Shown: positions 1,946 to 59,801, counted from the first letter of the stretch. The stretch: 64,000 nt of DNA from Glaucostegus cemiculus (GCA_976551045.1 CDPCPM010000020.1:248001-312000), one strand, 5' to 3'. Notes: generated by a model not told the origin, from the letters alone. Made by a program: numbers and translations.

Positions 1946-2379
1946 ATTTCTTGAAATAAGAGTCAGTCATTTCATCTTCTGATTTTCTGGCCAAGGTGCA
2001 GTAACTTTGAAGCAGCCATAACTGCCCCATGACTAACTGGTGGAGTCTACAAGCCACAAACTGAATGTTTTGCTGGCTTGAACCCTTTTTTTGAAAGGAG
2101 TATATAAGGGAATTGGCTTTGAAAGAACAAGCCACTTTAAAATTGTTCCATCCGAGTAGCCAGCCATCAGAAATATCTTTGAGTGTTTGAAGCTGACCAT
2201 AGGAGACCATCAAATATATATTTTAAGTGATCGAAATTCTGTAACTATTATGGACTCCTACATATAATGTACTTTCTGAAGCATATCCAATTCATATATA
2301 TTTTGAGAATATAGAAATTGGGTTCTAATCTTATGTTATGCAATTCTCTATTTTTTCCAAAACAACGTAAAAATTACAA

Positions 2380-2965
2380 TAAAAACAGAATACTGGAAAC
2401 ACTTAGCACATCAGGCAGCTTCTTGGAATGAGAAATACTTAATGTTTTGGGTCAAAGACAATTTGTCAGAACTGGGGGTAAAAGATGAAATTGCAGAGAG
2501 GATTAGTGGTGCGGGGGGGGTGGGGAAGGTTGCAAATGGATAAGACAAAGGGGATCATCTCTGATATGGTGAGGCCTGGATTCTGGTGGTGATAAACTGA
2601 AGATGAACTCATCCAGTTGACAGAGAGAGAGAGAGTGCACGTGAACAAAGGAACATAAAAGCTGTGAAATGAGGGTAGTTAGGGAGAGCACAATAAAGGA
2701 ATGTAAAAGCTGCAAAATGCAAAGTTTTATGAAATGCCTGGCAGGTTAACTGGTGCTAATGGACAGAGGAAAAACTGAGCCAATGTTACAGATGGATTTG
2801 CAGTAGAACTGAGCAGTTCTGATGCAGAGTAAGTGAGTTATCTGAAGTTCTAGAGTCTAGAAGGCTGCAATATGCCTAGATGGAAGATGAGGTGCAGTTC
2901 CTCAAGTTTATGTTGTGCCTTATTATAACAGCGTAGGGGGTCAGAGTGAGAGTGGAAAATTGGCA
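2380..2965 (-). mobile_element. Penelope-like element 3' relic
   Basis: The reverse strand reads KLEELHLIFHLGILQPS, similar to the C-terminus of the copy near 34200. It is followed by the recurring CTGGAAACACTTAGCA..CAGGCAGC terminal repeat. Confidence 0.6.
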
Positions 2966-3964
2966 CGAGCTTGAAAAAAACTTACTGCAATGACTGACTC
3001 TTGGTGAGCAGTTACTTCATTTTAAATAGAATCGTTTTGAGCAATTTTGAATTTATCAAGCTTCTGATTTTCCTTCCTGGCTTTTTGTAGTACACAATCA
3101 TTTGTGGCTCACAGAAACAGAGTTAATGGACCATGTCTTCTCACACACACTCCAGTGTTTTTGCATTGTTGAAATGGTACATGTGCCTATGGAAAGACAG
3201 GACATAATGAAACATTCGACTGTCTTTGGGAAAAAAAATTAACAATACATTGCATGTTACTCCTGGGGAATAATTCGAAGGCATTGAAGCAGTAAAGTTA
3301 TGCTGCTTTTTAATATTATGTATCAATATTTACCTTCTGCAGTCTTTACTTCTTGCTTTAAAGTCACGTTGTCTCAAAACAATAAGCAGTTTATTTCAGT
3401 TAGCTATTTTTCTATTTCCTTAAAACATAAGGTTGATTACAAATGACCCCTTTTTCCAGGATGAATGTTCCCTGAAATGGGCTATGGCCACGGTTATTAT
3501 CATCCACCTTTCTATCAATTTGATTATAGAGATTGGATTACCTTCAATTTGCACTAGTATTGCAGCAGCTTAGATATCCATTATGGGCTTTGTAAATGTA
3601 CACTTAGCCAATGACTTAACCGTAAATGTCAGACTAGGACCCACTTGCACACATCCATTTATTGTTTCATTTATGAGCATATTAGTCTGTTTGCAATTTG
3701 ATTGGTTTACTACACTGACCATAGAGTTATTCCTAGAATGCAAGCTTTCTGGCTAACATGCGATATCGGGAGAGATTCTGGAATACTCCATGGCACTTTG
3801 ATGTTTGTCATGAAACTTGTTTGGTTTAGGCCATACACAGTGATTGGGCTGTGTCATCATACAGGGATGGTTGTGGACTCTTGTGGTTGGAAAGAGTAAA
3901 TGGCTTTTTCTTGCTACTGTTCATTTTTACCTTTTTTGTTTTTATTGTACTTTTGGGTTTTTAG

Positions 3965-4012
3965 GTTTCGATCTCAGTCCTTTCCACGCAGACAGCTCCC
4001 TCTCTCCCTTTG
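3965..4012 (+). CDS. KMT2D: Candidate 48-nt KMT2D micro-exon (FDLSPFHADSSLSPF), phase 1-1
   Basis: Long T-rich tract ending TTTTTAG, donor TTG|GTAAGC, open frame, phase compatible with the exon at 7899. Peptide homology not recognised. Confidence 0.6.
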
Positions 4013-6399
4013 GTAAGCAGTCAGACCCTCTCGCCACTATTTGCGTGTTCACGTGTTAACATCAGTAGTTTGTACCTGGGTGCTTGTATGTCTGCTTGCA
4101 TTTTCATAGAGGATATTCACGTGACATCACCAGTCTATTCAGCAAGTTACTGGTCAAGTGCTAAAAAAATTTTTTTTTAGCAATTGTGAACATAATTTTT
4201 TTTGTTTGCTTTCTTGCCTTTAAATCTTCTGAAATTTTGTCTGTAAAATGCATGTCACAATCAGTTTGCATTCACAAAATATCTCAGAAGTAACAATTGT
4301 GATTGTAGATTGTCCTGCGTCATAGTTTATACTTAATCAAATATTTGCATTGTTGTAAAGGTGTAGTGAGTTGAATATAAAAACTGTTTTGAGGCATGGG
4401 AGTCTTTTTGGCATTTATTGGTAGATTGAGCATGCACACGTCTTGTCACTGATTATTGGTGCAAATTCCATTCATTGTATTAAAAGTCCAAGTTTACAAA
4501 AAATGAATTTTTTTTGCACCATTGTATTAATTTTATAAGCTGATTTTTGCCAGTTTGTTCAAAGCTTTCCCAGTCTCCTGTATAAAATTATTATGATGGT
4601 TTTTGGGCAAGTTGATGATCATACCAAGTGGAGTAACCCTTAGTATTATAGACCAGAGGATCCCAGATTTAAAGCCTGGCCTGTGCTGGCTTAGCTGATT
4701 TTCAAATGGGTTACAGTTGTGTCCCATTCTTTTCTCAGCTGATCACCACCAATAAACCTTACCACTGGTGGGAAGTTTTACATTTGTGAATTTTGGCTGA
4801 TTTCAGCATCTGACTTGGTTGTGTTATGCTCTAATATTATTGGCCTGCAGAACTTGATTGGGTAATGACCAGTGAGAATAAATGAATGTAAAGTTGTCAG
4901 CACCCTTATGACGGTTTCCCTGGAAGCGCCAAGTACATTTAACAGATGAGAGTCGGGAGATTTGTTTTATATATTGGGAGATGTAATTGTGATCAGTGTT
5001 ATTTGCACAGAATGAAGTATGTTACTAGATTTGGGAAGTTGATACTATTGTATTCAAACTAATCCATGCACAAGCAGTTGAGTTGACTGCTGTTAATTGA
5101 GATTGTTGGTAAATCCCATTTTTATTTTGCTAATTGTCCTGCAGAGTTGAATAATATGTTGACAATATTGTAGGCGTAAATCTGAAACTCTGCTAATTGT
5201 GATTATTGATGCCTTCGATAGAATGAGTTGACTGTTGTCCTGTGCATGGCTTCTAAAGACACAGTGAGTGATGCAATGCACATCTTCTATTCAGTTCCTT
5301 ACAATGTATTCAGTGGAAGTTCACTTTTTGCTGGAATTCTTTTATGCATTATTATCCATCAGAATAGCCTGCAAAGCCTTTTGCAATTCATGTGAAGACA
5401 AGAAGACTCTGCCTGTACAAAGATGTATGCTTACCTGGGGTACCAGTATAGAATTGGGGTAAATTTTTGGGAAATTAGAATTTGTCAGTAACCAAACTGA
5501 AGGTAGTACTGGCACAAGGAACTGGGCTTATTGATCCGTCATTAATTTTAATGCCAAGCTTTTTTCCGAAGGCAAATTTTTAACGAGTAATAGTTTGAAA
5601 GTATAGTGGGGTGTTTGTTTGATTATCAAGCAGGCTTGGATTTATCAGGGCAACCCCATGTCTTGGGTCTGATCAATTCAAATGGAAATAGCTCATGAAC
5701 AAACTGATTTGGTTTGGTGTATTCTGTGAAACAATGTGAAAACCGCTAGCTCCAATCAAGAGACTGGCCTGAGATTTGAGCCGAAGGGTGTGTAAAAAAT
5801 CAAAAGGTTTAAGTAGGGGAAAAAATTTGGGAGCTATTCCAAAGTTTTATGGTGGTTATTTGTTTTACTTGTTTTTGTTGCCTGGCTTCTTAACATACTA
5901 CTTTAATTTATACACTTTTCCTTTGTGTGGCAGTTTGTTTACAGTTTCAAATTCAGGTTCATGTGTAGCTTTTTCCACTGCAATTAATTAAATTTAATCC
6001 TCTGATGAGAGTAATAATGTCTGACTTGGATCTGCTTTTTTTTTTACTTTGTAACCAAGGATAGTTCATTCACAAAATTGACCTGACTTATTACCATCCC
6101 GGGAAGTTGCTGAGCAGCGATGGTGATATTTCAGTTTTGTTCCTCTTTCAGAAATTGATCACTAATCCGGTATTTAAATTGAGCATAAAATAACCTGGGA
6201 CTGAGTTTCATATGCAAATGACAATGTACGTGTCTGTAGATGTTTGAATTTAATTCAGAATATTGGTATAATTCAACATGTTGAGATGCACCTATGGTGG
6301 TGCTCGTCTTCCTGGCAAATACCACTCATAGCCTCTGTAAAAATGCATTCTTCTTTATCTGTATACATCTCTTGTTCTACTCTAGAAGAACTATAGAAA

Positions 6400-14639: not shown

Positions 14640-15195
14640 CAGTACCACATTAGGGCATAGAATGCAAGTGCAAGGAGGTTTTGTTCTAATGTTATAAAAC
14701 GTTGGTTAAGCCACAGCTGGAATATTGTGTGCAATTCTGGTCGCCACACGATAAGAAGGATGTGATTGCACTAGGATTCATTAGGATGTTGCCTGGGATG
14801 GAGTGCTTCAGTTTTGAAGAGAGACTGGATAGGTTGGGTTTGTTTTTGGAGCAGAGGAGGCTGATGGAGGTATACAAAGTTATGAGAGGCGTAGATTGGG
14901 TAGATAATAAGAAACTTTTCCCCATGGCAGACGTGTCTGAAGACCAGAGGGCAAAGGTTTAGTTGAGGAGGAAGATAAGGGGGGATCTGAGAGATCTTGC
15001 TCATCCAGATGCAACGTGAGCACTGCCTGATGGGTAGTAGAGGTAGAGATACTCATAATATTTAAGGGGTATCAGAACAAGCACTTGAATCACCAAGGCA
15101 TCATGAGCTATGGCCAAGTACTAGTAAATGGGATTAGTGTACCTTATGGTCAGAATAGATATAGCGGGCCAACAGGCTACTTTCTGTGCTCTATG
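14640..15195 (+). mobile_element. CR1-like LINE, 5'-truncated 3' end
   Basis: Translation YKTLVKPQLEYCVQFWSPH...FEERLDRLGLF.LEQRRL..VYKVMRG is the CR1 ORF2 C-terminus. Confidence 0.9.
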
Positions 15196-18032: not shown

Positions 18033-19973
18033 CAGGTTGACATGCAAGGTAACAAGCAGCCAAAAATTGAGAGACAAGAGGTAAAGCAGGATCGTAAACC
18101 ACCTCGTCATCCACATACCCTGAGTCAGAGTCCTGCAATGACCAGTCTTACTCCAGCAACATTAGTTGTGGGGAATTCTGGTTCCCCAGCAGAAATGAGG
18201 ATTGACAGTTTAGGCCCAAGTGCTTCATTACACGGTAATAAATCATTTACTACCTCGACTAATGAATTTGTAAAACTGCAAGCAACAAGCCCATCCCCAA
18301 AAGACTCCAGCAGTGACTTGTTTCCGAAACTGCATATGCAGTCTCCAACTGGAGTTGTAGCCCAAGAGCCTTTTGGGCATTCGCTAACATCATATCCTCA
18401 GGAACCCAATGTTCAGTCTTCCAGTAATCTAAGTCAAGCACCGGCATGGAACAGCTCTCTCCACCAGTCAAGTGTACCTCGTCCTGTTGTTCCAGGCCGA
18501 CCACAGCTGCTTGCCTCTTCAGAGCTACATTCTGCCACACCAGGAATGTCACATCATCAGCATCCTCTAGTCCCAGACTCATTCCTTCGATCTAGAGTGC
18601 TTGGTGAATCACATGATACCCATACAGTTGATCAGCCATTAGGAAGTCCAGGGTTTCGATCATCACAGTCGACAGACTGTTACACAAAACCACTTGAAGC
18701 TTTAACGCTGCCATCACCAACTGGAGACCAGTTAAGGCGACTTCCAGATACAGAAATTGGAGCACAGCATCCAAGAAATGAACAGTTTGCAGGAGTTATG
18801 AGACAAGATTTAAGTACAAATTCCTTGGCTTCCCTTTACAGAGCTGCAATGTTGGATCCAAATATGAATGTACGGTCACTTTCAGATGGGAGGGATAGAG
18901 ATATCTTCAAAGCACCTTTAACTCCCAGATCATCATATGTGGACCAAGCACCTACAGTACCTACTCAACGTTCTCAGGAACTACACCCTCAATCTCAGGG
19001 TGTCTCGCCACAGGCTCAGACCGATTTGTACCGCCAGTCTCCTTCCACGCCATTTTCTGATCCGTACCATCAATCTTCCTTGACACCACGACCATCTCCT
19101 AGTGAGAGCTGCTCTCCGTTACCTCCTAAATCGCTTCCTGCTGATTCTATCTCCAGGGTACCAATGAGTCCGCAATCTCAGTGCAGTTCACCGTTGACAC
19201 CCAGGCCACATTCCAATGAGGCATTTCCTCAGTCTCCCATTGCCTCTAGATTCCAATCACCAGATCCTTATTCAAGGCCACCTTCAAGAGATCCTTACGC
19301 TCAGCTTCACAAACCACAGAGATCCCAAATGGTTGACACCGGATTTAAATCCTCTCCAGTGCCTCATGGGCAACCAAGTGGTACCATTCAGCATTCAGCA
19401 ATGTTTTCTCAGCACAGTGACCCACATCCAAAAGCAGCTTATGTAATGCAGCCTCAGTCTCCAAGGCCTCTCAGTTTTGAGCCATGTGCCAAGACATTTG
19501 CCAGCAGTCAACCACAAAATCAATTTCCTTTCACTTCATCACCAGGAGATATGGTTAAAGAATCCCATTCTCAGCCGTCAGGATCTCAGATGCCTCGAAC
19601 AAATAATTTTCCATCAAGTCATCTAATGGGGAATCAGCTCAATGTAACTGATGCTCATTGCTCTCAACTCAATGCTAGTAATCAGTCAGGACCTCCAGAT
19701 GCTGCATCTGTTACAAGAGATGAAGCTTTCACCAATATGCCTTTAAGGCCATCCTTGATCAAGCAAGATACACTACCTTTACAGCAAGATTGTCCATACC
19801 AGACTTCTAACAATCGATCAGTAAGTGATTCATCTCCATCAGAGAGAAGCAGCGAGAGTGCCACACAAGTCCACACTCCAGCATCTCCCAGCAGAGACTT
19901 GCATGAGCTCCCATTCAACAGGGGAGCGCAAACTGGAAATCTGAGTCAGACGGAACTTGAGAAACAGAGACAG
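18033..19973 (+). CDS. KMT2D: KMT2D large Pro/Ser-rich exon (exon-31 equivalent), 1941 nt
   Basis: ORF 18042-20048 contains DIFKAPLTPR, RFQSPDPYSRPPSRDPY and LSQTELEKQRQ. TAGCAG tandem acceptor and CAG|GTAATG donor. Confidence 0.95.
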
Positions 19974-20149
19974 GTAATGATAAGTATTACTGGAGTAACT
20001 TTGTGTGTGGATGTACTTTACTGTCATGGTATTTTAAGTTTTAACTGATGTTATCCCAGTGCACTACTAGAAAGTATGAAATTTCAAGTATTGAAAGACC
20101 TATTAGCAGTGTCATTGCGGCACGCTGGGTCGCGTATGCATTCCCAGTA

Positions 20150-23464: not shown

Positions 23465-24585
23465 TAGTCATATAGCACAGAAACATGCCCTTTGGCCCAA
23501 CTGGTTCATGCCAACCAAAGTTCCCATCTAAGCTAGTCCCATTTGTCCATGTTTGGCCCAGATCCCTCTAAACCTTTCCTATCCATGTGCCAGTCCAAGT
23601 ACCTTTTAAATGTTGTTCACGTACCTGCCTCAACCACTTCCTCTTGCAGTTCATTCCATATACTGACCACTTTCTGGGTGAAAACGTTGACCCTTGGGTT
23701 TTTATTAAATCTCTCCCCTCACCTTAAACATATTCCCTCTAGTTCTTGATTCCCCAACGCTGGGAAAATGACTGCACATTCCCCATCTATGCCCTTTGTA
23801 ACTTTATACATCTCTATATGACTACACCTCATTCTCTGACACTCCAATGATTAAAGTCCCAACTTGCTCAACCTCTCTCCATAACTCAGTCCCTCAAGTC
23901 CTGGCAACATCCTCTTAAATCTCCTCTGCACTCTTTCCAGCATAATGGCATTGTTCCTATTGCAGGGTGACCAGAACTGAACACAATGTTCCAAATGTGA
24001 CCTCTCCAATGTCCTGTACAACGGCACCGTAACATCCCAACTTCTATACTCAGTGCCCTGACTGATGAAGGCCAGCGTGGCAAAAGCCACTTTAACCACC
24101 CTGTCAACCTGTGATGCCACTTTCAGGGAACCATGTACCTGTACTCCTAGGTCCCTCTGTTCTACAACACTCCCCAGGGCCCTACCATTCACTGTGAAAG
24201 TCCTACCCTCGTTTGCGTTCCCAAAAGGCAATACCTCACACTTATCTGAATTAAACTCCATTTGCCATTCCTCCACCCACTTACCCAGCTGATCAAGATC
24301 CCTCTGTAAATCCTGATAACCATCTTCACTGTCAATGACACCACCTATCTTAATGTCCTCTGCAAACTTACCATGCCTTGTACAGTCTCATCCAAATCAT
24401 TGATGTTGATGACAAATAGCAATGGGCCTAGCACCGACCACGGGAACACCACTCATCAGGGGCTTCCAGTCTGAAAAACCGTGTTCCACCATCACCCTCT
24501 GCTTCCTACCATCAAGCCAATTCTGTCCCCAATTAGCTATCTCTCCCTGGGTCCCATGTGATTTTACTTTTCATAGCCTACCATG
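23465..24585 (-). mobile_element. CR1-like LINE (RT C-terminus and 3' UTR)
   Basis: ORF 23851-24276: WQMEFNSDKCEVLPFG...RDLGVQVHGSLKV...LEHCVQFWSP...LERVQRRF. Confidence 0.93.
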
Positions 24586-24874: not shown

Positions 24875-26130
24875 AACATAACATAGAACATGCCATTTGA
24901 TGCACAATGTCTTTGTGACCATGATGCCAATCTAAATAATCCCATCTTCCCATCTACTTGCACATGGTCTCCATCTCTCCATTCCCTACCTGTTCATGTG
25001 TCTGTCCAAACGTTGCTATTGTATCTGCTTCCACCATCTTCCCTAGCAGCATGTCCCAGTCATCTACCACTCTCTGTGTGTTTGTGTGTCCCTCTCACCT
25101 TAAACCTACGCCCTCCAGGGTTTGACATTTCCACCCAGGAGAAAAAGACTATCTATCTATACCTCCTTACAATCTTATATACTTCTATCACGTTACCCCT
25201 CAGCCTCTGGTCTAGAGAAAACAATCCAAGTTTGTCCAACTTCTCCTTATGGCTAATACTCTCTCATCCAGGCAATGTCCTGATGAACCTCTTCTGCACC
25301 CTCACCAAACCCTCCACATCCTTCCTGAACTGCCCACAATACTTCAAATGTGGCCTAGCCAGTTTTATGCAGCTGCAACAATCCTTCCCAAATTTTATTT
25401 TAATTTAATTTTATTTATTTACAACGTGGTAACAGGCCCTTTCGCCCCAACGAGTCCACGTCGCCCATTTTAATCCCCCAAATTAACCTACCCATACGTC
25501 TTTTATACTTAACATCCCGACCGATGAAGGCAAGTATTCTGTACGCCGCCACCTTTACCACCCTATCCACTCGTGGCCACTTTCAGGACTTGCACCCCAA
25601 GATCCCTCTTCATCAATGCTCTGAAGGGTACTGTCATTTGTTGTTTACTTCTGCTTGCATTTAACATCCCAAAGTGCAACACACACTTGTTCAAGTTAAA
25701 CTCCACCTGCCATTTCTCTGCCCACACTTCTAACTGGTCTATATTCTGCTGAATCCTTTGACAGCGGTCCTCACTGTCTGCACACCTACCTATTTTTGTG
25801 TTGCCTGCAAACTTGCGAATCAGTCCATGTACATTTTCGTCCAAATCATTTATATAAATTACAAACAGTGGAGGCCCCAGCACTGATCTCTGCAGAACTC
25901 TCCTCGACACGGACTGCCAGTCAGAAAAAAACACTGCTCCACCACTACCCTTTGTCTTCTATGGCCAAGCCAGTTTTGAATCCAATCTACCAAGTCTCCA
26001 CGGATCCCGTGTATCTTAATCTTCTGGATCAGCTTACCATGAGCGAACTTATTGAAAGCTTTATTAAAGTTCATGTATCCAACTTCTACTGCCCTACCCT
26101 AGTCAATCATCTTTGTCGCCTCCTCACTAA
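24875..26130 (-). mobile_element. CR1-like LINE (RT domain fragment and 3' UTR), interrupted by a SINE fragment
   Basis: ORFs 25563-25934 and 25859-26074: NFNKAFNKFAHGKLIQK, SVLGPPLFVIYINDLD, WQVEFNLNKC. Confidence 0.92.
25399..25500 (-). mobile_element. 5'-truncated V-SINE-like fragment nested in CR1, with TTTTAT target-site duplication
   Basis: Reverse strand reads GACGTATGGGTAGGTTAATT...GGGCCTGTTACCACGTTG plus a (TAAA)n tail. TTTTAT occurs at 25393-25398 and 25501-25506. Confidence 0.7.
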
Positions 26131-26396
26131 GCTTGAACATTAGGGGCAAAATGTATTGATGTTCTTGGGAACTGCAACAATAATGAAGAGCAGGTAATTT
26201 TACTTGCAATATTAGATCATAGGGAAGCTTATTTTATGAGGTCAAGCCAGTTGTGCAGAAAATTTTGTGCCAGTGGTCACTTGCACTATATAAAGGCCTT
26301 ACTTAAAGTATATTTAAATTACCCTATTTGAAAAGAGGACACTAACTACTGCTGCTTTGCAATACTTATATCTCCACTTAATATTTTATTTTCTAG

Positions 26397-28771
26397 ACAA
26401 CCAGGGGTTGGTAACCCACAAGGATTCCACCCAAGAGGCAAACCAGCTAATCAACAGCAACAGTGGCAACAGCAGTTAATACAAAGGCTTCCTGGGCAGA
26501 CCCGTTTCCAGCAACCAGAATCTTTGCATGTGAATAGGCCTGGAATGACGATGCAAATGAATAGCACAGCTGGGCTTAACCCTAGAATTGCCACTCAAAT
26601 CACTTTTCAAAATGCACAACAACAAATTGTAGCTTCACCTATTCCTGTGAGTCCTCAGTATATAGAACTGAGGCACAATTCCCAACGAATGCCCATAGCT
26701 GCCCAATTGGTACAGCGTGCACCCCAGCCAAGGCCACGCCTTCCATTACCAAATCAAGAAGTCAGTTCATTTGTGCACCAAATGCAGGGATGCAAGGTCA
26801 TATCGAGAGGTCCAGGCACACCTTTGCCACAGTCACCAGTTGGAATTACACTCTTGCCCCAGCAGAATATTTCTACTCCATTACCATCCTCACCTCATTC
26901 AGTGGAAGTATCAAGTGCCCATCAGCATATCCAGACAAAAGATCCATCTACAGTACAAGTTGAAGCACAGCAGCCATTTCAGACTAGTTCATCAACTACA
27001 GCATCCACTTCAAGTTGCAGTACTGATGGCTTGAAGGACAACGCAGTATCCTTTCCACTTAACTCTGTCCCATCCATCTCCAATGTAGTTAGAGAGCACA
27101 CAGAGTTGGATCCAAGGAAGATCTCTTGTGATGATTCAGTTGAAAAAGCTTTAGATGAAGAACTAGGTTCACCTAAAGAGCTAGATGAAGAAGATGACCT
27201 TGCCAATTTGAGTCTTGACCCAGACAGCAAGACAGATGATGAACTTGGTAACCTTGATAACCTAGAAACCAATGATCCCCACCTTGATGATCTTCTGAAA
27301 TGTGAGGAATTTGATCTACTAGCTTATACTGACCCTGAGCTAGACACTGGTGACAAAAAGGACATATTTACAGAGCAATTGCGTTTAGTGGAATCTGCAA
27401 ATGAGAAGGCAGAAGAAAATCAGAGTACACTTGCTGATCAGGGTGCTGTAGACCCAGCTGTTCGACGGACAAATGATAATATCAGCAGCTCTGATTTAGA
27501 AAAGACTGAGAAAGAAGAGGAGAGTGGAAAAGCAAAAACTAAATCTGATATTGTTGCAGATACTCTATCTTCTTCTGATAGGATTACTTGTGAGTCAGTG
27601 AATGACGTCAATACAGAAACGAGTGCTCACAGTCAAAGCAGTGATCCAGTCACTAGGGCCCCATCTACTGATAATTCTCCTAAGCCTACTCTTGATCTAG
27701 TGATGAAGGTAGAAGAAAATGTTTCCCAAAGTTCAGCTTGTCAGTTTGTAGGAAATACTTCCACGGCTCAGACAGTTTTGATAAAATCAGAAAGCCCACC
27801 AAAGGGAGATGATGAGAGAGGAGCAGTGTCAATGCTACTCAATCTGGGTACTGGACTTAGTGTCAACACAAGTATAGCGATGTGTCAGAGTTCTGCATGC
27901 ACGACCAGTGGAACACCGACAACTACTCAAAGTGGTACAGTTGCTTCGGGTAGTCATGGATCTGCACGGATTCCCAACAATGAACATTCTAATGTGGACT
28001 TGGAAACTATGCCCTGCACATCTTCAGCACAGATAATATCCAAGTTGCCACTGGTGGTCCAGTCTAGGCCATCATTGGGTAAATTTGGACTTGATGAAAT
28101 GTGCCAACATGTGCCCAGTATGGAGCCGAAACGTCGGTCTGTGGATGACCTTGTCAAAGTGGAGAGCTCTTTGGAGGCAAGTGAGCTTCCACTACTTCTC
28201 CATGATTTACTTGAACAAGAGAAAATGGAACTGCAGCAGCAGCAGTTGGGAGGATCACAGTGTATATCTGCTCAACAGCAGCAGCAGCAGCATTCAGGAC
28301 CAAAGACCCATCTTCCAGTTCTGCAACAGCAGCAACAGCTTGAGGTTTCACATCAACAGACTCATCCAGGGCTTCCCCAACACCTTCCAACAACACAGCA
28401 GTCTCAGCACCTTGAGGGGCCACAACAGAATTTAAACTTGCCACAGCCACATATCTTGGGGGTGATACAACATCATCAGTTGGGGATCCCAAGATCTCTT
28501 CCATCTTCACAGCAGCAACAATTGGCAGCATCACAGCAACGGCTTGGAGCCTCACCACATGTAGTCATGTCCCAACAGCAGCAGCATGTGGCAACAGGGC
28601 AACATCCAACACAGCAGATAGTGGCTTCACAGCAGAGTCAACATTTGACCTCACCGCAGTTATTGCCAACTCAGCAGTTGGCTGTATCGCAAATGGGCAT
28701 CATGCAGCAGACGCAGCAAGTTGTGATGCAACAGCAGCAACAGTTAGCCAATGCTTTCTTCCCAGATACAG
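26397..28771 (+). CDS. KMT2D: KMT2D large exon (exon-34 equivalent), acidic and Gln-rich, 2375 nt, two LXXLL motifs
   Basis: ORF 26524-28803 extended to the TTTTCTAG acceptor. Contains YIELRHN, NDPHLDDLL (27283-27297), ELPLLLHDLLEQEK (28198-28212) and LANAFFPDT. CAG|GTACAG donor. Confidence 0.96.
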
Positions 28772-28884
28772 GTACAGTAGGTAATGAGCAAGCTTACAGA
28801 TAACGTAGGCTTCTTTCTCGTTGACCATTAATGGCCGCTGCACTGAATTAGTAGTAGAAATATCATGCTCTGGTTTTCATGATC

Positions 28885-52451: not shown

Positions 52452-55400
52452 GTCCGTAAACAGCAAAAGGAACATACAAATCTTATGACAGAATATCGGA
52501 ATAAACAGCAGCAGAAATGTTCTCTATCTCCCTCAGGAGTGATGGGGACAGCCACATCCCAGAACCCTCGTGTAATGCCCAAACTTTCAACACCCATGTT
52601 ATCGGCAGCATTAGCCCAGCAAGGAGGATCAATCCTTGGATCCCAAGCATTAGCTCAGCAACAAAATACACTAATAGGACACACAGGAAATATAAGACTG
52701 CCACTTCAACAAGGACCAACTTTCTTGACGTCGGCTGTGACACAACAACAAGAATATCCATCTGCCTCAGCAACTGTATCTTCTTCTGCTCCAACTAGCT
52801 TTTTTCCCGGAAATTCTGCTGCTCAGACACTTGCGAATGAAAACAGACTCCTGCAAGAGAGACAACTACAGCTACAACGAATGCAGCTTATTCAACAGCA
52901 AGGGCTGGTAGGACCAACTCAGCAACAGAGTATCATGGGAAAATTACAGCAACAAAGTATCATTGGACAGCTTCAACCAACAACTCAGCAGAGTATTGTG
53001 GGTAACAAATCAACGCTGACGCAGCAAGCTATCATGGGCCAACAGCAGCAAGGTTTCATTGGACAACAGCAAGGGATTGTTGTCCAGCCACAACACCAAC
53101 CAAGTCAGCAGCAACAAGCTCTTGCAGGTCAACAACTACCCCAGCAGCACACCAACATGGGTCAAGCTCAGCAGCAGCCAGGAGCACAGCACCAACAGAG
53201 TCTGGCACCTCAACAGCAACACTTGAGGCTGATGAGTCAACAGCATATCCCACCAATTGGTCAACAGCAAGGCCTTCTTGGACATCAGCAATCCCACCAA
53301 CAGGGACTTGCAAGTCAACCTAAACCTCCAAGGCCTCAGCAAGGTCTTATGGCACAGCAGTTGGCACACCAACAAGGTCTTGCAGGTCAACAGCAAGTCC
53401 TTGCTTCCCAACAGCAGCAACAGAATCTTGTTCTACAGCAACAGACATCCAATGCTGCTTTGCAACAGCAGGGACTCATGGGACCTCAACAAGGGATCGT
53501 TTCCCAGAGTCAGCAGTTAGCAACAATGACACCATTGCAACAACATCACCTTCAAGCAGTTTCAGGACAGCTGCACCCACAAAGTGTTATCAGGCAAAAC
53601 AATATCCTTAGACTTTCCACGCCTTTGCAAGGTCAGCAGCAAAGCACAATGGGACATCATGCTCGAATGCAGGGTATAATGCGGCAGCAATCGCAAGATG
53701 TTTTGGGGCAACACATGGCAACACAAGGCATAATGGGCCAGCAGACTCCGTTGCAAGTCCTAAGGCAGCAGCTGCCAGGTATAATGGGGCAAGGGCAGCA
53801 GCAGCATCAATCCCAAGGAATGATCACGCAGAACATGAGGCAGCAGCATCAGCCCCTAATGTCAGTGGAACAAGGACAGCAATCCCAGCCTCAGTGTACA
53901 ACGGGCCAGGGTCAGCAGCATCAGACCCAGAGCACAATTGGACAGGGGCAGGAGCAGCAGCCTCTTGCTGTAATGGGAATGGGACAGCAGACACATCCTT
54001 CACCAGCACCACCCCAGCCCCAGGGATCAATGGGACAAGGAATGGTACAGCAACCACTACAACCTACCCAACCCCAGAGCATGATGGGGCAACAGCCACA
54101 GCCGTCACCTCAACCTCGAGGCACGGTAGATCAGCAACCACCATCCCAGCCACAGAGTACAGTTGGTCAAGGGATAGGACAAGAAATGGCACAGGGAATT
54201 GGACCACAGCCCCAGCCCCAGGCCACCGTGGGTCAGCAGCCCCCGACCCCGCCCCAGACCACCGTGGGTCAGCAGCCCCCGACCCCGCCCCAGACCACCG
54301 TGGGTCAGCAGCTCCCGCCCCAGCCCCAGACCACCGTGGGTCAGCAGCTCCCGCCCCAGCCCCAGACCACCGTGGGTCAGCAGCTCCCGCCCCAGCCCCA
54401 GACCACCGTGGGTCAGCAGCTCCCGCCCCAGCCCCAGACCACCGTGGGTCAGCAGCTCCCGCCCCAGCCCCAGACCACCGTGGGTCAGCAGCTCCCGCCC
54501 CAGCCCCAGACCACCGTGGGTCAGCAGCTCCCGCCCCAGCCCCAGACCACCGTGGGTCAGCAGCTCCCGCCCCAGCCCCAGACCACCGTGGGTCAGCAGC
54601 TCCCGCCCCAGCCCCAGACCACCGTGGGTCAGCTGCTCCCGCCCCAGCCCCAGACCACCGTGGGTCAGCAGCTCCCGCCCCAGCCCCAGACCACCGTGGG
54701 TCAGCAGCTCCCGCCCCAGCCCCAGACCACCGTGGGTCAGCAGCTCCCGCCCCAGCCCCAGACCACCGTGGGTCAGCAGCTCCCGCCCCAGCCCCAGACC
54801 ACCGTGGGTCAGCAGCTCCCGCCCCAGCCCCAGACCACCGTGGGTCAGCAGCTCCCGCCCCCGCCCCCGACCACCGTGGGTCAGCAGCTCCCGCCCCCCG
54901 CCCCCGACCACCGTGGGCCAGCAGCTCCCGCCCCCGCCCCCGACCACCGTGGGCCAGCAGCTCCCGCCCCCGCCCCCGACCACCGTGGGCCAGCAGCTCC
55001 CGCCCCCGCCCCCGACCACCGTGGGCCAGCAGCTCCCGCCCCCGCCCCCGACCACCGTGGGCCAGCAGCTCCCGCCCCCCGCCCCCGACCACCGTGGGCC
55101 AGCAGCTCCCGCCCCCGCCCCCGACCACCGTGGGCCAGCAGCTCCCGCCCCCGCCCCCGACCACCGTGGGCCAGCAGCTCCCGCCCCCGCCCCCGACCAC
55201 CGTGGGCCAGCAGCTCCCGCCCCCGCCCCCCGACCACCGTGGGCCAGCAGCTCCCGCCCCCCGCCCCCGACCACCGTGGGCCAGCAGCTCCCGCCCCCGC
55301 CCCCGACCACCGTGGGCCAGCAGCTCCCGCCCCCGCCCCCGCCCCCTCCCCAGACCACCGTGGGTCAGCAGCTCCCGCCCCCCGCCCCCGCCCCCACCCC

Positions 55401-58400
55401 AGACCACCGTGGGTCAGCAGCTCCCGCCCCAGACCACCGTGGGTCAGCAGCTCCCGCCCCAGCCCCAGACCACCGTGGGTCAGCAGCTCCCGCCCCAGCC
55501 CCAGACCACCGTGGGTCAGCAGCTCCCGCCCCAGCCCCAGACCACCGTGGGTCAGCAGCTCCCGCCCCAGCCCCAGACCACCGTGGGTCAGCAGCTCCCG
55601 CCCCAGCCCCAGACCACCGTGGGTCAGCAGCTCCCGCCCCAGCCCCAGACCACCGTGGGTCAGCAGCTCCCGCCGCAGCTCCCGCCCCAGACCACCGTGG
55701 GTCAGCAGCTCCAGCCCCAGACCACCGTGGGTCAGCAGCTCCAGCCCCAGACCACCGTGGGTCAGCAGCTCCAGCCCCAGACCACCGTGGGTCAGCAGCT
55801 CCAGCCCCAGACCACCGTGGGTCAGCAGCTCCAGCCCCAGACCACCGTGGGTCAGCAGCTCCAGCCCCAGACCACCGTGGGTCAGCAGCTCCAGCCCCAG
55901 ACCACCGTGGGTCAGCAGCTCCAGCCCCAGACCACCGTGGGTCAGCAGCTCCAGCCCCAGACCACCGTGGGTCAGCAGCTCCAGCCCCAGACCACCGTGG
56001 GTCAGCAGCTCCAGCCCCAGACCACCGTGGGTCAGCAGCTCCCGCCCCAGCCCCAGACCACCGTGGGTCAGCAGCTCCCGCCCCAGCCCCAGACCACCGT
56101 GGGTCAGCAGCTCCCGCCCCAGCCCCAGACCACCGTGGGTCAGCAGCTCCCGCCCCAGCCCCAGACCACCGTGGGTCAGCAGCTCCCGCCCCAGCCCCAG
56201 ACCACCGTGGGTCAGCAGCTCCCGCCCCAGCCCCAGACCACCGTGGGTCAGCAGCTCCCGCCCCAGACCACCGTGGGTCAGCAGCTCCCGCCCCAGACCA
56301 CCGTGGGTCAGCAGCTCCCGCCCCAGACCACCGTGGGTCAGCAGCTCCCGCCCCAGCCCCAGACCACCGTGGGTCAGCAGCTCCCGCCCCAGCCCCAGAC
56401 CACCGTGGGTCAGCAGCTCCCGCCCCAGCCCCAGACCACCGTGGGTCAGCAGCTCCCGCCCCAGCCCCAGACCACCGTGGGTCAGCAGCTCCCGCCCCAG
56501 CCCCAGACCACCGTGGGTCAGCAGCTCCCGCCCCAGCCCCAGACCACCGTGGGTCAGCAGCTCCCGCCCCAGGCCACCGTGGGTCAGCAGCCCCAGCCCC
56601 AGACCACCGTGGGTCAGCAGCCCCAGCCCCAGACCACCGTGGGTCAGCAGCCCCAGCCCCCGCCCACCGTGGGTCAGCAGCCCCAGCCCCAGCCCCCGCC
56701 CACCGTGGGTCAGCAGCCCCAGCCCCAGACCGCCGTGGGTCAGCAGTTCCAACCCCAACCCCAGGCCGCGGTGGGTCAGCCACCCCAGCTCCAGCCCCAG
56801 GCCGCTGTGGGTCAGCAGCTCCAACCCCAGGCCACCGTCGGTCAGCAGCTGCCACCCTCAGCCACAATTGCTCAACCACCCCCTCAGGTTCCCTTGGGGC
56901 ACGGAGTAGTGCAACAGCAGTCATCCCAGGGAGCAGTGGGAATGGGTCAGCAGCCTCGGGGGCAAGGCATGAAGGGTGTTGGACAGCAACAAATGCAACC
57001 TCTGAGTATGATGGGAGTTGCACAGCAGCAGCTCCAGCCTCAGGGCACAATAGGCTTTGGACAACAGCAACCCCATGGCACAGTGGAGATGGGACAATCC
57101 CAATCTCAAAGCCCAATAGGGCAGGTAAAGCACCAGCAGCAGCCCCAAGGTTTGATTGGGGTGAGGCAAGCGCAGCAACACCAACTACTCCAGGGCCTGA
57201 TGGGGCAGTGGCAGCTGCAGACACAAGGTGTAGCCAGACATGGACACCCACAGAACCTGTCAGGGCAAGGGCAGCTGTCACAGACTTTGGTGAACCAAGA
57301 GCAAGGACAGCAGCAACAACAACGTTCACAGAGCATATTAGGGCAGGGCCAAGGACAGCAGCAACTGCAGACCCTTATGGTACAGAGGCAGTCTCCGGGT
57401 ACAGTGGGGCAAGCACAGCGGGTGCAGAGTCTAGGTACAATTAGTGGGCAGGGCCTTCAGGCACCTGGTATGGTAGGTCAGGAGAAGGAGCACGAACAGC
57501 AGCAAGAGCAGCCACCTGCCGGTACACTGAGGCAAGGACAGCAACAAGCCCAAATTTTAATGGAGCAGGAATCTCTGCTACCTCCCCATTGCATAATGGG
57601 GCAGGACCGTAACCAGCCACCAACTCAGAACATGTTGAAGAGTGCAGTAGGATTGGGACAGTCTCAGGGTATGATGTATCAAAATCTACAAACTCGAGCA
57701 GTGACTTCAGTGCAACAAACAATTCAACAAGGTGTTGGAGGGCAGCAGAGACCAATGACTCAGCAAAGTCAATTAATGAGACATGTACAGCCATCTGTAG
57801 CTAATCTCCAACAGAATAACGGCCTCGGTTTTCAAGGAGTGGTGCGTGTAGCAACATCACAGCAGCATGGAGCAGTAGGAGATCCAAGGCAAGGGATACC
57901 AAACATCATGACTTCACAGTCGTTTCAACAGCAGCATGCGGGCCTGCGTTCAGTTCAAGTGACTAGTCAACAGATAGGTTTGGGCCAACTTCGTCCAGGC
58001 ATGGTTTATGTTCAGCAGATTAAAGCTGAGCATGGAGGGAAACCACAAGAGATGGCCCATCTAATTCAAAACAAACGAGCAAGGCAGAGCACAGGGTCAA
58101 CAAATGAACTGGTGCCTGCCCAAGTTCATTGCAGTCGTTCACAAATGCTCCATACAGAGGTAAATAAAAACAGTTTGGGAGATGTGCCACTACAAAATGA
58201 AACCATGGAAACAATAGTACAGCCACAGCCAGAATTACTCAAGAACCATGAATCTGAAGACAGTCCTCCTTGCATGGCAGACCCTATTGGAATGATGCCT
58301 CAGAAGATGCCGGATTACAAATCTGATGCATCCGCAATGAAACCACATGGCACTGCAGAAAAAACAAATTCTGCCACTGAAGCGCAAACCAGAATTAATA

Positions 58401-58921
58401 TGGAGATGCATGAACAAAGTGAGTTGACAAAAGCTTGCACATTTGATTTCCCAGTATCTCCTCCAAATCAAGCTGCAAAGGAGGAATACCCTGGACTGCG
58501 AGCAGAATCATCACTGTTGAATCAAACCAATGGGCAAGAGGAATGTGCACAGAAGGTCATTGGAAGACCGGATAACTGTTCTAACTTGCAGGAAGGTGCA
58601 GCTAAGGACACCAATGCAAGTGCAGGTCACTTAGTGAAACAGGAAAACCTTAATGCAATTCGCTGTGGGTACTCTGAGGGAACTTTAAAACATGAGTTAA
58701 ATACTGACTCCTTCGGTGCCTTGAATGTAGGGGACCAGTCTTTCCTTGCTCCCAGGTCTGAAGCTGGACAGCTGCTTCTCCAAAAGTTATTACGCACCAA
58801 GAACTTGCAGCTTGTGGCACAGCGCTCCGGAGATGGAACACACTTGGCTCTAAAAGGACATATTGAAAGCAAGGCTGTGATGATAGATCGGAAACTTCAA
58901 GGTACAACTGGAAATACAGAG
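52452..58921 (+). CDS. KMT2D: KMT2D giant Gln-rich exon (exon-39 equivalent), 6470 nt, containing a coding minisatellite; frame broken by five +1 C insertions as assembled
   Basis: Starts VRKQQKEHTNLMTEYRNKQQQ in the frame of ORF 52485. Ends RSEAGQLLLQKLLRTKN...KLQGTTGNTE in the frame of ORF 53894 (LQKLL at 58778-58792). TTTTAG acceptor and GAG|GTTAGT donor. Length mod 3 = 2. Confidence 0.92.
54219..56860 (+). repeat. Coding minisatellite, about 76 units of 36 bp (CAGACCACCGTGGGTCAGCAGCTCCCGCCCCAGCCC) with 30-bp variants
   Basis: Directly visible tandem array translating as QTTVGQQLPPQP / QTTVGQQLQP / QTTVGQQLPP. Units counted by hand. Confidence 0.98.
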
Positions 58922-58981
58922 GTTAGTTTACAAATTTGTCAGCAAGTTTGAAAGTCAATAAAATTGCAAATGAAAGATAAA

Positions 58982-59110
58982 AACAGAAAATGCTAGAAAC
59001 ACTCAGCAGGTCAGGCTGCATCTGTGGGGAGAGAAACAGTTAATGTTTCAGGTGGAAGACCCTTTGTCAGAACTGAAGAGTGTTAACTCTGTCTCTCTTC
59101 CCACAGCTGT
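58982..59110. repeat. Penelope-derived short element, partial palindrome
   Basis: GCTAGAAACACTCAGCAGGTCAGGCTGCATCTGTGGGGAGAGAAACAGTTAA...TTAACTCTGTCTCTCTTCCCACAG. Confidence 0.75.
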
Positions 59111-59648: not shown

Positions 59649-59801
59649 ATGAAGGAATTTCAAGAAATTAGCAAGAAGAACTTGGCTCCAAAATCGAAAA
59701 GGACACAGAAAGCAACTGACAGAGGCACCAACTCACGAAAGAAGAGTAAAAAGGATGAGGGAATAAAAAGTACAGATGCCCTCATGAAGCAGTTGCAACA
59801 G
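59649..59801 (+). CDS. KMT2D: KMT2D coding exon (MKEFQEISKKNLAPKSKRTQK...DALMKQLQQ), 153 nt
   Basis: Basic NLS-like peptide resembling KMT2D KPKRVQKASDR..RKK..EALLKQLKQ. CAG|GTAACA donor. The AAG acceptor is slightly uncertain (alternative start 59655). Confidence 0.9.

Follow-up and report, generated by a model that had tools for sequence, protein, structure and literature searches.

The large exon of KMT2D in Glaucostegus cemiculus harbors a probable coding minisatellite, and the reading that we favor, at a probability of about 60%, is that of a young array derived from a native unit of 10-12 codons and forming a tolerated, disordered spacer of about 880 residues, in which five extra C bases of the assembly are errors. 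Growth from the native unit is likely by itself, as is translation into a tolerated, uncharged and disordered spacer, a prediction made from the sequence. The window analysed is a whole stretch of 64,000 nucleotides, and the features discussed are listed in Table 1.

Table 1. Features of the KMT2D large exon and its surroundings (positions counted from the first letter of the window).
Feature	Position	Strand	Evidence or remark
KMT2D large exon, orthologue of human exon 39	52452..58921	+	AG/GT ends; tblastn with GCC20758.1; V-R-K; RNA depth of a relative over both flanks
Exon 5' non-array part, 589 codons, Q-rich	52452..54218	+	75-76% identity to whale shark and bamboo shark proteins; no stop
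Minisatellite of the coding exon with 76 unit starts (mainly 30- and 36-nt units), GC ~0.74-0.76	54219..56860	+	
Block of 15 36-nt units (QTTVGQQLPPQP), 14 identical, one with CAG to CTG	54296..54835	+	
Polyproline variant block, units 18-32 (LPPPPPTTVGQQ)	54836..55404	+	contains all five +1 C
C6 run, +1 frameshift no. 1, likely consensus error	54894..54899	+	
C6 run, +1 frameshift no. 2	55075..55080	+	
C6 run, +1 frameshift no. 3	55226..55231	+	
C6 run, +1 frameshift no. 4	55257..55262	+	
C6 run, +1 frameshift no. 5, net +5	55378..55383	+	
Block of 11 identical 30-nt units (QTTVGQQLQP)	55693..56022	+	
Tail units that have diverged (with Ala variants and some AT-ending codons), nearest to the unit of relatives	56545..56860	+	
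Exon 3' non-array part, 687 codons, open, conserved LLQKLL stretch at end	56861..58921	+	
30 codons best aligned just before the carpet-shark 13-aa array	56861..56950	+	GCC20758.1 2427-2455; XP_048474814.1 1604-1631
Premature TAG met by the upstream frame as assembled	56907..56909	+	2,012 nt upstream of the donor site
Following exon (153 nt), both ends in phase 0	59649..59801	+	tblastn; RNA depth in a relative

Gene Identity and Exon Structure

The assignment to KMT2D, already made by a sequence-only reading of the window, is upheld by homology: a named KMT2D-like protein of Rhincodon is 75% identical, and tblastn with the Chiloscyllium punctatum protein GCC20758.1 yields 27 collinear pieces, the last of which is the SET domain, located downstream of the window. 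This protein bears PF13771, PF05964, PF05965 and PF00856, and the exon order runs to PHD-FYRN-FYRC-SET. The exon was also correctly identified, as it opens with V-R-K, inside the exon 38/39 coiled coil, at the start of human KMT2D exon 39, which spans amino acids 3581-4510 and includes Arg3582 and Lys3583 (PMC7200597). With about 930 residues in that source, the human exon agrees with the ~2.8 kb given for mammals.

As assembled, the large exon counts 6,470 nt (3n+2), which makes 2,155 codons provided that five bases are errors; both of its splice sites are phase 0, and the phase of the next exon fixes the reading frame required at its end. The codons that directly follow the array align best just before the repeats of carpet sharks, which means that the two arrays stand side by side.

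KMT2D is single-copy, with one 100% match genome-wide; the sole other match (51% over 43 aa) is a locus that we take to be the KMT2C paralogue, and no long tandem repeat was found in it. Coding sequence other than the array (12,264 nt, 27 pieces) is collinear over GCC20758.1 with 0 stops. Neither a duplicate of KMT2D nor a dispersed family of repeats was retained, in view of this one 100% match and of other DNA matches that are at most 74% identical; the four contigs inspected, among nine others with DNA matches, contain plain CAGCCC/GCTGGG hexamer runs. As regards chromosomal location, the X of sharks shares homology with a part of human chromosome 12 (PMC10620051). In a probe for X-linkage, none of 5 TGF_beta_GS matches and none of 24 IGFBP-family matches lay on the KMT2D contig, and the gene was not named in the supplementary files searched in this respect (one per paper).

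Structure and Youth of the Array

The array is present as announced, with its 76 unit starts inside the large exon. The TRF call covers 54209-56830 (period 36, 75.2 copies, score 3583), and a split at the unit anchor gives 75 complete intervals (47 of 36 nt, 21 of 30 nt, four of 37 nt and one each of 42, 48 and 49 nt), 70 of which are multiples of 6. Units are arranged head-to-tail and fall within the 10-100 bp range of minisatellites. They are near-identical, and at least four main types of them, not a single one, are grouped in blocks. The recent homogenisation that had been supposed is confirmed, since 32 of the 64 core units are identical and none of the 118 CpG columns contains a transition. 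GC3 reaches 0.90-0.92 in the array vs. 0.41-0.43 in the flanks, which diverge from relatives by 3.3-4.5%. An absolute age derived from the epaulette shark mutation rate is unreliable because gene conversion turns units over.

The polyproline block exhibits the strongest minus-strand G4 propensity (G4Hunter-type mean of -1.41 vs. -0.57 to -1.03 in other blocks). The G4 claim rests on this score, as the strict four-run pattern gave only 3 matches in the array. Two further features were discarded: stop-free frames on both strands, a by-product of the GC-rich unit, and frame-keeping unit lengths, a weak sign of selection in a unit made of hexamers.

The Interrupted Reading Frame of the Assembly

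The array had been described as lying in frame, which is contradicted by the assembly: five units (starting at 54872, 55053, 55198, 55235, and 55356) harbor C6 in place of the C5 of their sister units, the length of the exon is not a multiple of three, and the upstream frame, which departs from the QTTVGQQ reading in unit 19, meets a stop. The KMT2D frame to the SET domain is thereby interrupted in the array only and is open elsewhere. All five breaks are +1 changes in C5 runs, none being -1, and they affect 5 of the 36 C-runs of at least 5. Because the gene is single-copy and otherwise intact, the extra bases are most likely consensus errors, and the 879-residue (~880) array peptide stands only if they are. 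Against such errors, five of them in ~570 nt would represent a very high local rate, and the 30 homopolymers of at least 5 in the other coding pieces show no break; the common direction (5/5) is not decisive, with p = 0.06 if a symmetric model is assumed. Among the sequencing runs listed, none was found for the species itself (best share of words, 0.33).

Evidence from Close Relatives

Relatives that are ~96% identical present a related repeat unit at the array site. In one of them, three RNA reads and a DNA contig run past 54224 in the same repeat-like unit, so that RNA is collinear at the 5' edge of the array. RNA depth of a relative is present in every exon bin from the tail units to 58944 and is zero in six intron bins, with an interspersed repeat of an intron filling the splice-joint counts. 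RNA of a relative enters both ends of the array; no species yielded a read that crosses it from end to end. The sequences of a third relative stop short of the array edge, and the short-read contigs of relatives break at the array site.

Repeats in the Same Exon of Other Vertebrates

The array had been considered an insertion in the Gln-rich region; insertion into a repeat-free exon is not supported, as this exon contains repeats in relatives, in the bamboo shark and in birds. Its uniqueness, deduced from mammals, was similarly overstated in view of the bamboo shark and birds. In the automatic model GCC20758.1 of C. punctatum, ~45 degenerate units of 13 aa extend over ~590 aa, with a lag-13 identity of 0.65 vs. 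a maximum of 0.23 in 200 shuffles. Similarly, Rhincodon typus (XP_048474814.1, also an automatic model) has a long uncharged Q/G/P repeat in the middle of the exon. The carpet-shark array differs from that of G. cemiculus by its period and its unit, is degenerate, and begins ~30 residues downstream of the present site; on the simplest reading of these sequences, the two would be independent amplifications. The bamboo shark exon counts 1,807 codons vs. 2,155 here, the present exon being only ~19% longer. The sharks compared were two, both carpet sharks and one partial, and the protein search took in proteins of up to 5,000 aa; further shark orthologues were sought with 0 matches among 6,573 candidates, another search that returned four proteins, and a cluster look-up that gave singletons.

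In birds, an 11-aa periodicity is clear in four of the five proteins scored (lag-11 identity of 0.54-0.63, and 0.40 in the fifth), and the gecko exon has no clear period. Unit numbers are none in gecko, ~20 in birds, ~45 in the bamboo shark and 76 in this species. The three arrays (periods of 10-12, 13, and 11 aa) are all nearly charge-free and aromatic-free, and they contain per 100 aa 6-9 hydrophobic-G-Q and 5.6-8.8 P-Xn-G motifs vs. ~2-2.6 in the flanks. Since repeats of other kinds occupy this exon in the bamboo shark and in birds, expansion in this floppy exon is likely tolerated and recurring, as far as can be judged from these sequences. No report of shark or bird exon-39 repeats was found in the KMT2D/MLL4 literature searched, which included few subscription papers.

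Composition and Predicted Disorder

The peptide is charge-free as claimed, being made of Q/P/T/V/G/L (0 charged residues, at most 0.2% aromatic, 21-27% Pro). A likeness to polyQ is not retained, the longest Q run being 2. A single-sequence AlphaFold model, weak evidence as no alignment was used, has a mean pLDDT of 38.3 and no secondary structure. Low-complexity, polar, uncharged and disordered, the array is prion-like in composition. Aromatic or Arg stickers are a criterion for condensation-driving prion-like domains, and the array is all but devoid of these residues typical of drivers. It is predicted to be a spacer and not a condensation driver because it lacks aromatic residues, charged residues and long Q runs. 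Its P-Xn-G motifs (n = 0-4, as defined in PMC6799979; 7.8-8.8 per 100 aa) are a trait shared with elastin-like Pro/Gly polymers; the mean hydropathy of ~-1.0 and a Gly content of only 8-9% would speak against a low LCST transition temperature. An ESM Atlas search was uninformative (best score 0.79, recognition 625).

Neutrality of the array is taken as a default and is not a result. The uncharged, aromatic-free, hydrophobic-G-Q grammar common to the three arrays is a separate observation, which runs counter to this default.

Comparison with Known Systems

As a class, coding minisatellites of Q-rich disordered regions are already known; the function of the present one is putative, and the length polymorphism, condensate tuning and Thr modification suggested for it are hypothetical. 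By analogy, the best reading is that it may work like the glutamine-rich repeats of Drosophila Ago2. Indeed, GRR1 and GRR2 of D. melanogaster Argonaute2 are coding tandem repeats in a low-complexity region (~30-40% Gln) located beside a conserved catalytic part, and they are remodelled between related species with Gln-richness kept (PMC3002974). Ago2 differs in having 2-4 six-residue and 10-16 23-residue units, with copy-number variation that is shown and no effect detected in the assays described there (PMC3002974), whereas the KMT2D array belongs to a dosage-sensitive chromatin enzyme and comprises ~76 units, each of 10-12 residues. In the same gene, mouse Kmt2d has a Gln-coding VNTR whose copy number varies between strains; on the contrary, it consists of 15-18 copies of a CAGCAA hexamer encoding pure polyQ (PMC12903361), whereas the present array is ~25 times longer in bases, with 30-36-nt units and Q runs of at most 2. 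The prion-like domain of human KMT2D (MLL4), at aa 3561-4270 with a Leu-interrupted polyQ at 3898-3974 (PMC13584762, PMC10731558, PMC4928265, which cite Fasciani 2020), similarly lies in this exon after the exon 38/39 coiled coil and is Q-rich and disordered. The human tract is a helix- or beta-prone polyQ driving condensation, whereas the present insert, rich in Pro, is predicted to be without such structure.

A block-wise order of variants is a feature of CEB1/CEB25-type minisatellites. CEB1 and CEB25, which are human and G4-forming, share with the array their GC-rich tandem units and a strong G/C strand bias (PMC2673046, PMC3486850). They are subtelomeric and their instability was measured in yeast (PMC2673046, PMC3486850), whereas the present array lies in a coding exon and its G4 is predicted from the score.

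Mechanism and Alternative Explanations

The unit would have been duplicated first, after which slippage and unequal exchange or gene conversion would have copied and homogenised the units. Expansion may have been helped by the C-rich unit, whose CCCCAG hexamer builds long pure arrays at other places in this genome, and by the G4 propensity of the template strand. As the unit is built of hexamers, array length would shift in 6-nt steps and the frame would mostly be kept. The protein would tolerate the array because the exon is a disordered linker from the exon 38/39 coiled coil to the C-terminal catalytic region.

Read literally, the assembled sequence describes a loss-of-function allele, in which C-run slippage shifted the frame and the transcript, stopping at 56907, would likely be degraded. 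Two shifted units out of the five have the same sequence, as expected if a real variant was copied, and ~80% of frameshifts in human assemblies had short-read support (PMC10172123). Such an allele is nevertheless highly improbable in a single-copy gene that has no other lesion across 12,264 coding nt and whose truncation causes haploinsufficiency in humans (PMC7200597), all the more as the five changes are of the same +1 homopolymer type. The extra bases might also be real and tolerated if part of the array were spliced out as an internal intron (exitron), thus removing the shifted block and keeping the frame. All five indels do lie within one 570-nt block, and nearly every unit offers a phase-0 GT donor and a CAG acceptor on codon boundaries (60 copies of ACC/GTGGGT and 44 of the two commonest C-rich CAG/A contexts). 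This is decidedly improbable, as the array contains 0 YTNAY branch-point motifs and only 8% T, RNA reads of a relative run into the first unit and across tail units with no joint at the 5' edge, and near-complete splicing would be needed in a dosage-sensitive gene. It is improbable too that the assembler lengthened the array, for instance through the merging of two alleles or too great an expansion of the repeat, and that the true array is much shorter. Reference assemblies do contain VNTR copy-number errors (PMC12903361), and base errors seem concentrated in the array. Tail units of relatives show a modest RNA pile-up (13 and 11 reads vs. 5 beside) and a summed contig depth of 30.5 vs. 3.7-5.7 in one DNA-type run, with none in another, but such depth gives nothing direct on this species. 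Moreover, these 2.6 kb lie on a 4.6-Mb contig, suggesting long-read assembly, and the variant blocks are ordered and non-recurring, with diverged ends, like real minisatellite alleles.

Other explanations concern function. Several vertebrate lineages might independently amplify hydrophobic-Gly-Gln / Pro-Xn-Gly units under selection in this exon, which in mammals has an interrupted polyQ, copy number setting the phase behaviour of KMT2D condensates, such as their response to temperature or mechanical load. The three arrays have different periods and a similar charge-free grammar, enriched in motifs over the flanks, and only 1-20% of random exon windows of 10-13 residues satisfy all three grammar criteria; these were, however, picked after the arrays had been seen, and the units stem from one Q/G-rich exon and are not independent draws. 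In human KMT2D, the prion-like domain (3561-4270) drives condensates and mechanosensing together with its polyQ (PMC13584762, PMC10731558), and P-Xn-G motifs recur in Pro/Gly-rich phase-separating proteins (PMC6799979). On the contrary, the unit changes in sequence and in period from one lineage to another, a clear array is lacking in the gecko, and copy-number variation of Drosophila Ago2 left development and RISC assembly unchanged in the experiments reported (PMC3002974). Selection of the repeats is consequently unlikely. It is rather doubtful that exon 39 acts as a recurrent dial, with periodic, charge-free hydrophobic-Gly-Gln polymers built independently in birds, carpet sharks and the present lineage where mammals have polyQ and, in this species, an 880-residue, length-variable version that would set the temperature or force threshold of enhancer condensates.

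Significance

A tolerated spacer encoded by a young minisatellite remains our preferred reading. If the animal's own frame is unbroken, this enhancer enzyme, dosage-sensitive as it is, accommodates a near-perfect repeat of 880 residues in the exon of its condensate domain, and such tolerance, if true, limits how sequence-specific the condensate-forming domain can be. An automatic annotation run on this assembly would yield a truncated or mis-spliced KMT2D, a gene easily misread in sharks. The exon's repeated and independent amplifications would form a natural panel for condensate experiments and, if exon 39 did act as a dial, the series from gecko to birds, bamboo shark and this species would make the effects of repeat grammar and length on transcriptional condensates testable.

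Host gene and structure of the array

The array lies in KMT2D, present as a single copy in the genome, within the exon orthologous to human exon 39 (amino acids 3581-4510; PMC7200597), with which it shares the N-terminal residues V-R-K. The 5' part of this exon is 75-76% identical to a KMT2D-like protein of the whale shark (Rhincodon typus, XP_048474814.1) and to the bamboo shark protein (Chiloscyllium punctatum, GCC20758.1), which harbors PHD, FYRN, FYRC and SET domains. A tblastn search with the latter against the window and 160 kb of flank gave 27 collinear pieces, the last being SET about 29 kb beyond the window; the query being N-terminally partial, this collinearity covers the gene downstream of its 5' end. 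Judged by these matches, the organism is probably a shark. Two other large exons are devoid of arrays (Table); only the exon 39 orthologue shows expansion. X-linkage of KMT2D was also considered and no support came out.

Both TRF and a split at a unit anchor (76 starts) recovered the array where the sequence-only reading had placed it. The 75 intervals measure 36 nt (n = 47), 30 nt (n = 21), 37 nt (n = 4) and 42, 48 and 49 nt (n = 1 each). Two entry units precede 15 copies of QTTVGQQLPPQP; units 18-32 then form a polyproline block, after which come more 36-nt units, a run of 11 identical units of 30 nt and finally a tail of diverged units. The array is unique in the genome, which comprises 2.85 Gb in 1,511 contigs; the remaining DNA matches are at most 74% identical and, on four inspected contigs of the nine others with matches, are plain hexamer runs. 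With five extra bases discounted, it spans 879 of the exon's 2,155 codons. The array is real and striking, a minisatellite that is likely translated.

Table. Features of the window and of other stretches of the same genome (G000).
Feature	Location	Remarks
Host exon	52452-58921	preceded by AG, followed by GT
Array	54209-56830	TRF: period 36, 75.2 copies, score 3583; 54219-56860 in the sequence-only reading
Stop of upstream frame	56907-56909	TAG
In-frame 24-nt stretch	53236	shared with organism C, missing from organisms A and B
Other exon indels versus relatives	53795, 57308	likewise multiples of 3
Large KMT2D exons	18033-20048; 26332-28803	~650 and ~790 codons; identity with bamboo shark 79-83%; no tandem arrays
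Intronic very high-copy interspersed repeat	58977-59076	after the large exon; probably a short interspersed element; summed contig depth >900,000 in two relatives' runs, >1,000 RNA reads
Decayed intronic fragments	23851-24387 (-); 25563-26098; 14690-14962	reading like the terminal portion of a LINE-type reverse transcriptase
Near-pure GCTGGG/CAGCCC hexamer arrays	L021 (C694) 2842-4787	up to 324 copies across L021/L022/L024; GC-rich repeat-dense regions
Near-pure GCTGGG/CAGCCC hexamer array	L022 (C273) 2194-3134	
Near-pure GCTGGG/CAGCCC hexamer array	L024 (C188) 1684-2055	
Paralogous exon	L025 (C45:2268000-2277000), minus strand	589-aa open frame, start R-K-Q-Q-K-E-H as in the KMT2D exon, no long tandem repeat; presumably KMT2C

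Reading frame and transcription

The units had been described as lying in frame, which fails for the sequence as assembled: the exon counts 6,470 nt (3n+2), although both splice sites are in phase 0. Five units carry a C6 run where sister units carry C5, and the upstream frame terminates 2,012 nt short of the donor. Judging from sequence context, the five extra C are probably consensus errors (probability about 0.85), because all are +1 events in homopolymers of the most C-rich block, because no stop interrupts the other 12,264 coding nt and because KMT2D truncations are haploinsufficient in humans (PMC7200597). Long homopolymers, tandem repeats and low-complexity DNA account for about 80% of indel errors in human HiFi assemblies (PMC10172123, PMC13456413). 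Against an error, five errors within ~570 nt represent a high rate, none of 30 other homopolymers of at least 5 nt in coding pieces is broken, and short reads backed about 80% of frameshifts in human assemblies (PMC10172123). That the extra C are real and the assembled haplotype a true null allele is very unlikely. An array inflated during assembly is quite improbable. Splicing of part of the array as an internal intron (exitron) would find GT and AG sites in phase within nearly every unit, but the array has no branch motif; this reading is highly improbable.

Six of 24 runs from close relatives, among them organisms A, B and C, were compared over the array flanks; the relatives diverge from the window by 3.3-4.5% there. 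Stranded RNA of organism B gave 51 reads over the exon 5' part, and three RNA reads and one DNA contig continue beyond 54224 in the same repeat-like unit (peptide AVGQQPQPPA); a related unit is therefore older than the split, and the RNA is collinear at the 5' edge of the array. De Bruijn contigs typically end at repeats; those of organisms A and B stop 9 and 25 nt beyond 54224, and those of organism C short of it. Two further RNA runs present depth in all bins of 56731-58944 and zero in six intron bins. No array-spanning read was found among the runs compared. RNA reads accumulate only modestly over the tail units (13 and 11 versus 5 beside them), and contig depth there reaches 30.5 versus 3.7-5.7 in organism A and does not change in organism B, which hints at shorter arrays in relatives, a signal weakened by GC bias and unit divergence.

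Probable origin of the array and predicted peptide

The array core is young, with 32 of 64 units identical and transitions at 0 of 118 CpG columns; GC3 is 0.90-0.92 versus 0.41-0.43 in the flanks. The unit includes a CCCCAG hexamer, and arrays of this same hexamer (GCTGGG/CAGCCC in the Table) reach 1.9 kb elsewhere in the genome. Length steps of 6 nt say little about selection, since the unit is built of hexamers. On the template strand, most blocks have high G4 scores: 23-45% of scoring windows reach 1.5 or beyond in four blocks, against 0% for the 30-nt block and 0.3% for the rest of the window. G4-linked instability has been reported for the minisatellite CEB1 (PMC2673046, PMC3486850). Slippage together with unequal exchange or conversion would have driven array growth.

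The array peptide is charge-free and almost devoid of aromatics; Pro makes up 21-27% of it, and no Q run is longer than 2. A single-sequence AlphaFold model (pLDDT 38.3) lends weak support to disorder. The human domain works via Leu-interrupted polyQ (PMC13584762, PMC10731558, PMC4928265), and because the insert does not resemble it, we predict a spacer.

Repeats in the same exon of other vertebrates

The array is not a one-off, as repeats of other kinds occur in this exon of bamboo shark and birds. In bamboo shark the exon (1,807 aa) contains ~45 degenerate units of 13 aa, a length kept exactly by 40 of the 45 pieces; identity at lag 13 is 0.65 versus a shuffle maximum of 0.23. The partial whale shark protein terminates within the same repeat. 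The 30 residues 3' of the window's array align best with the stretch directly preceding the carpet-shark array; the two arrays therefore adjoin, and most simply they would represent two independent amplifications. Without arrays, the exon measures ~1,215 aa in bamboo shark and ~1,276 aa in the window. Closer to the exon start, five bird proteins harbor an 11-aa repeat (lag-11 identity 0.40-0.63) of ~15-23 degenerate QQPGVMGQASM-like units, its length varying among proteins; a sixth bird model lacks the repeat-bearing part of the exon, and the gecko exon has no clear period. Two conserved anchors are separated by 914 in gecko, 881-991 in four birds, 1,757 in bamboo shark and ~2,105 in the window.

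Selection on the array as a tuner of condensates is unlikely: the window, bamboo shark and bird arrays do have a common grammar, found in 1-20% of random windows, but its criteria are post hoc, and Drosophila Ago2 exhibits comparable variation with no detected effect (PMC3002974). Outside subscription papers and bioRxiv supplements, the literature on KMT2D/MLL4 yielded no account of shark or bird exon-39 repeats. In mouse, Kmt2d harbors a CAGCAA tract whose copy number varies from 15 to 18 (PMC12903361, Table S7). Repeat growth thus recurs in the exon 39 orthologue of KMT2D.
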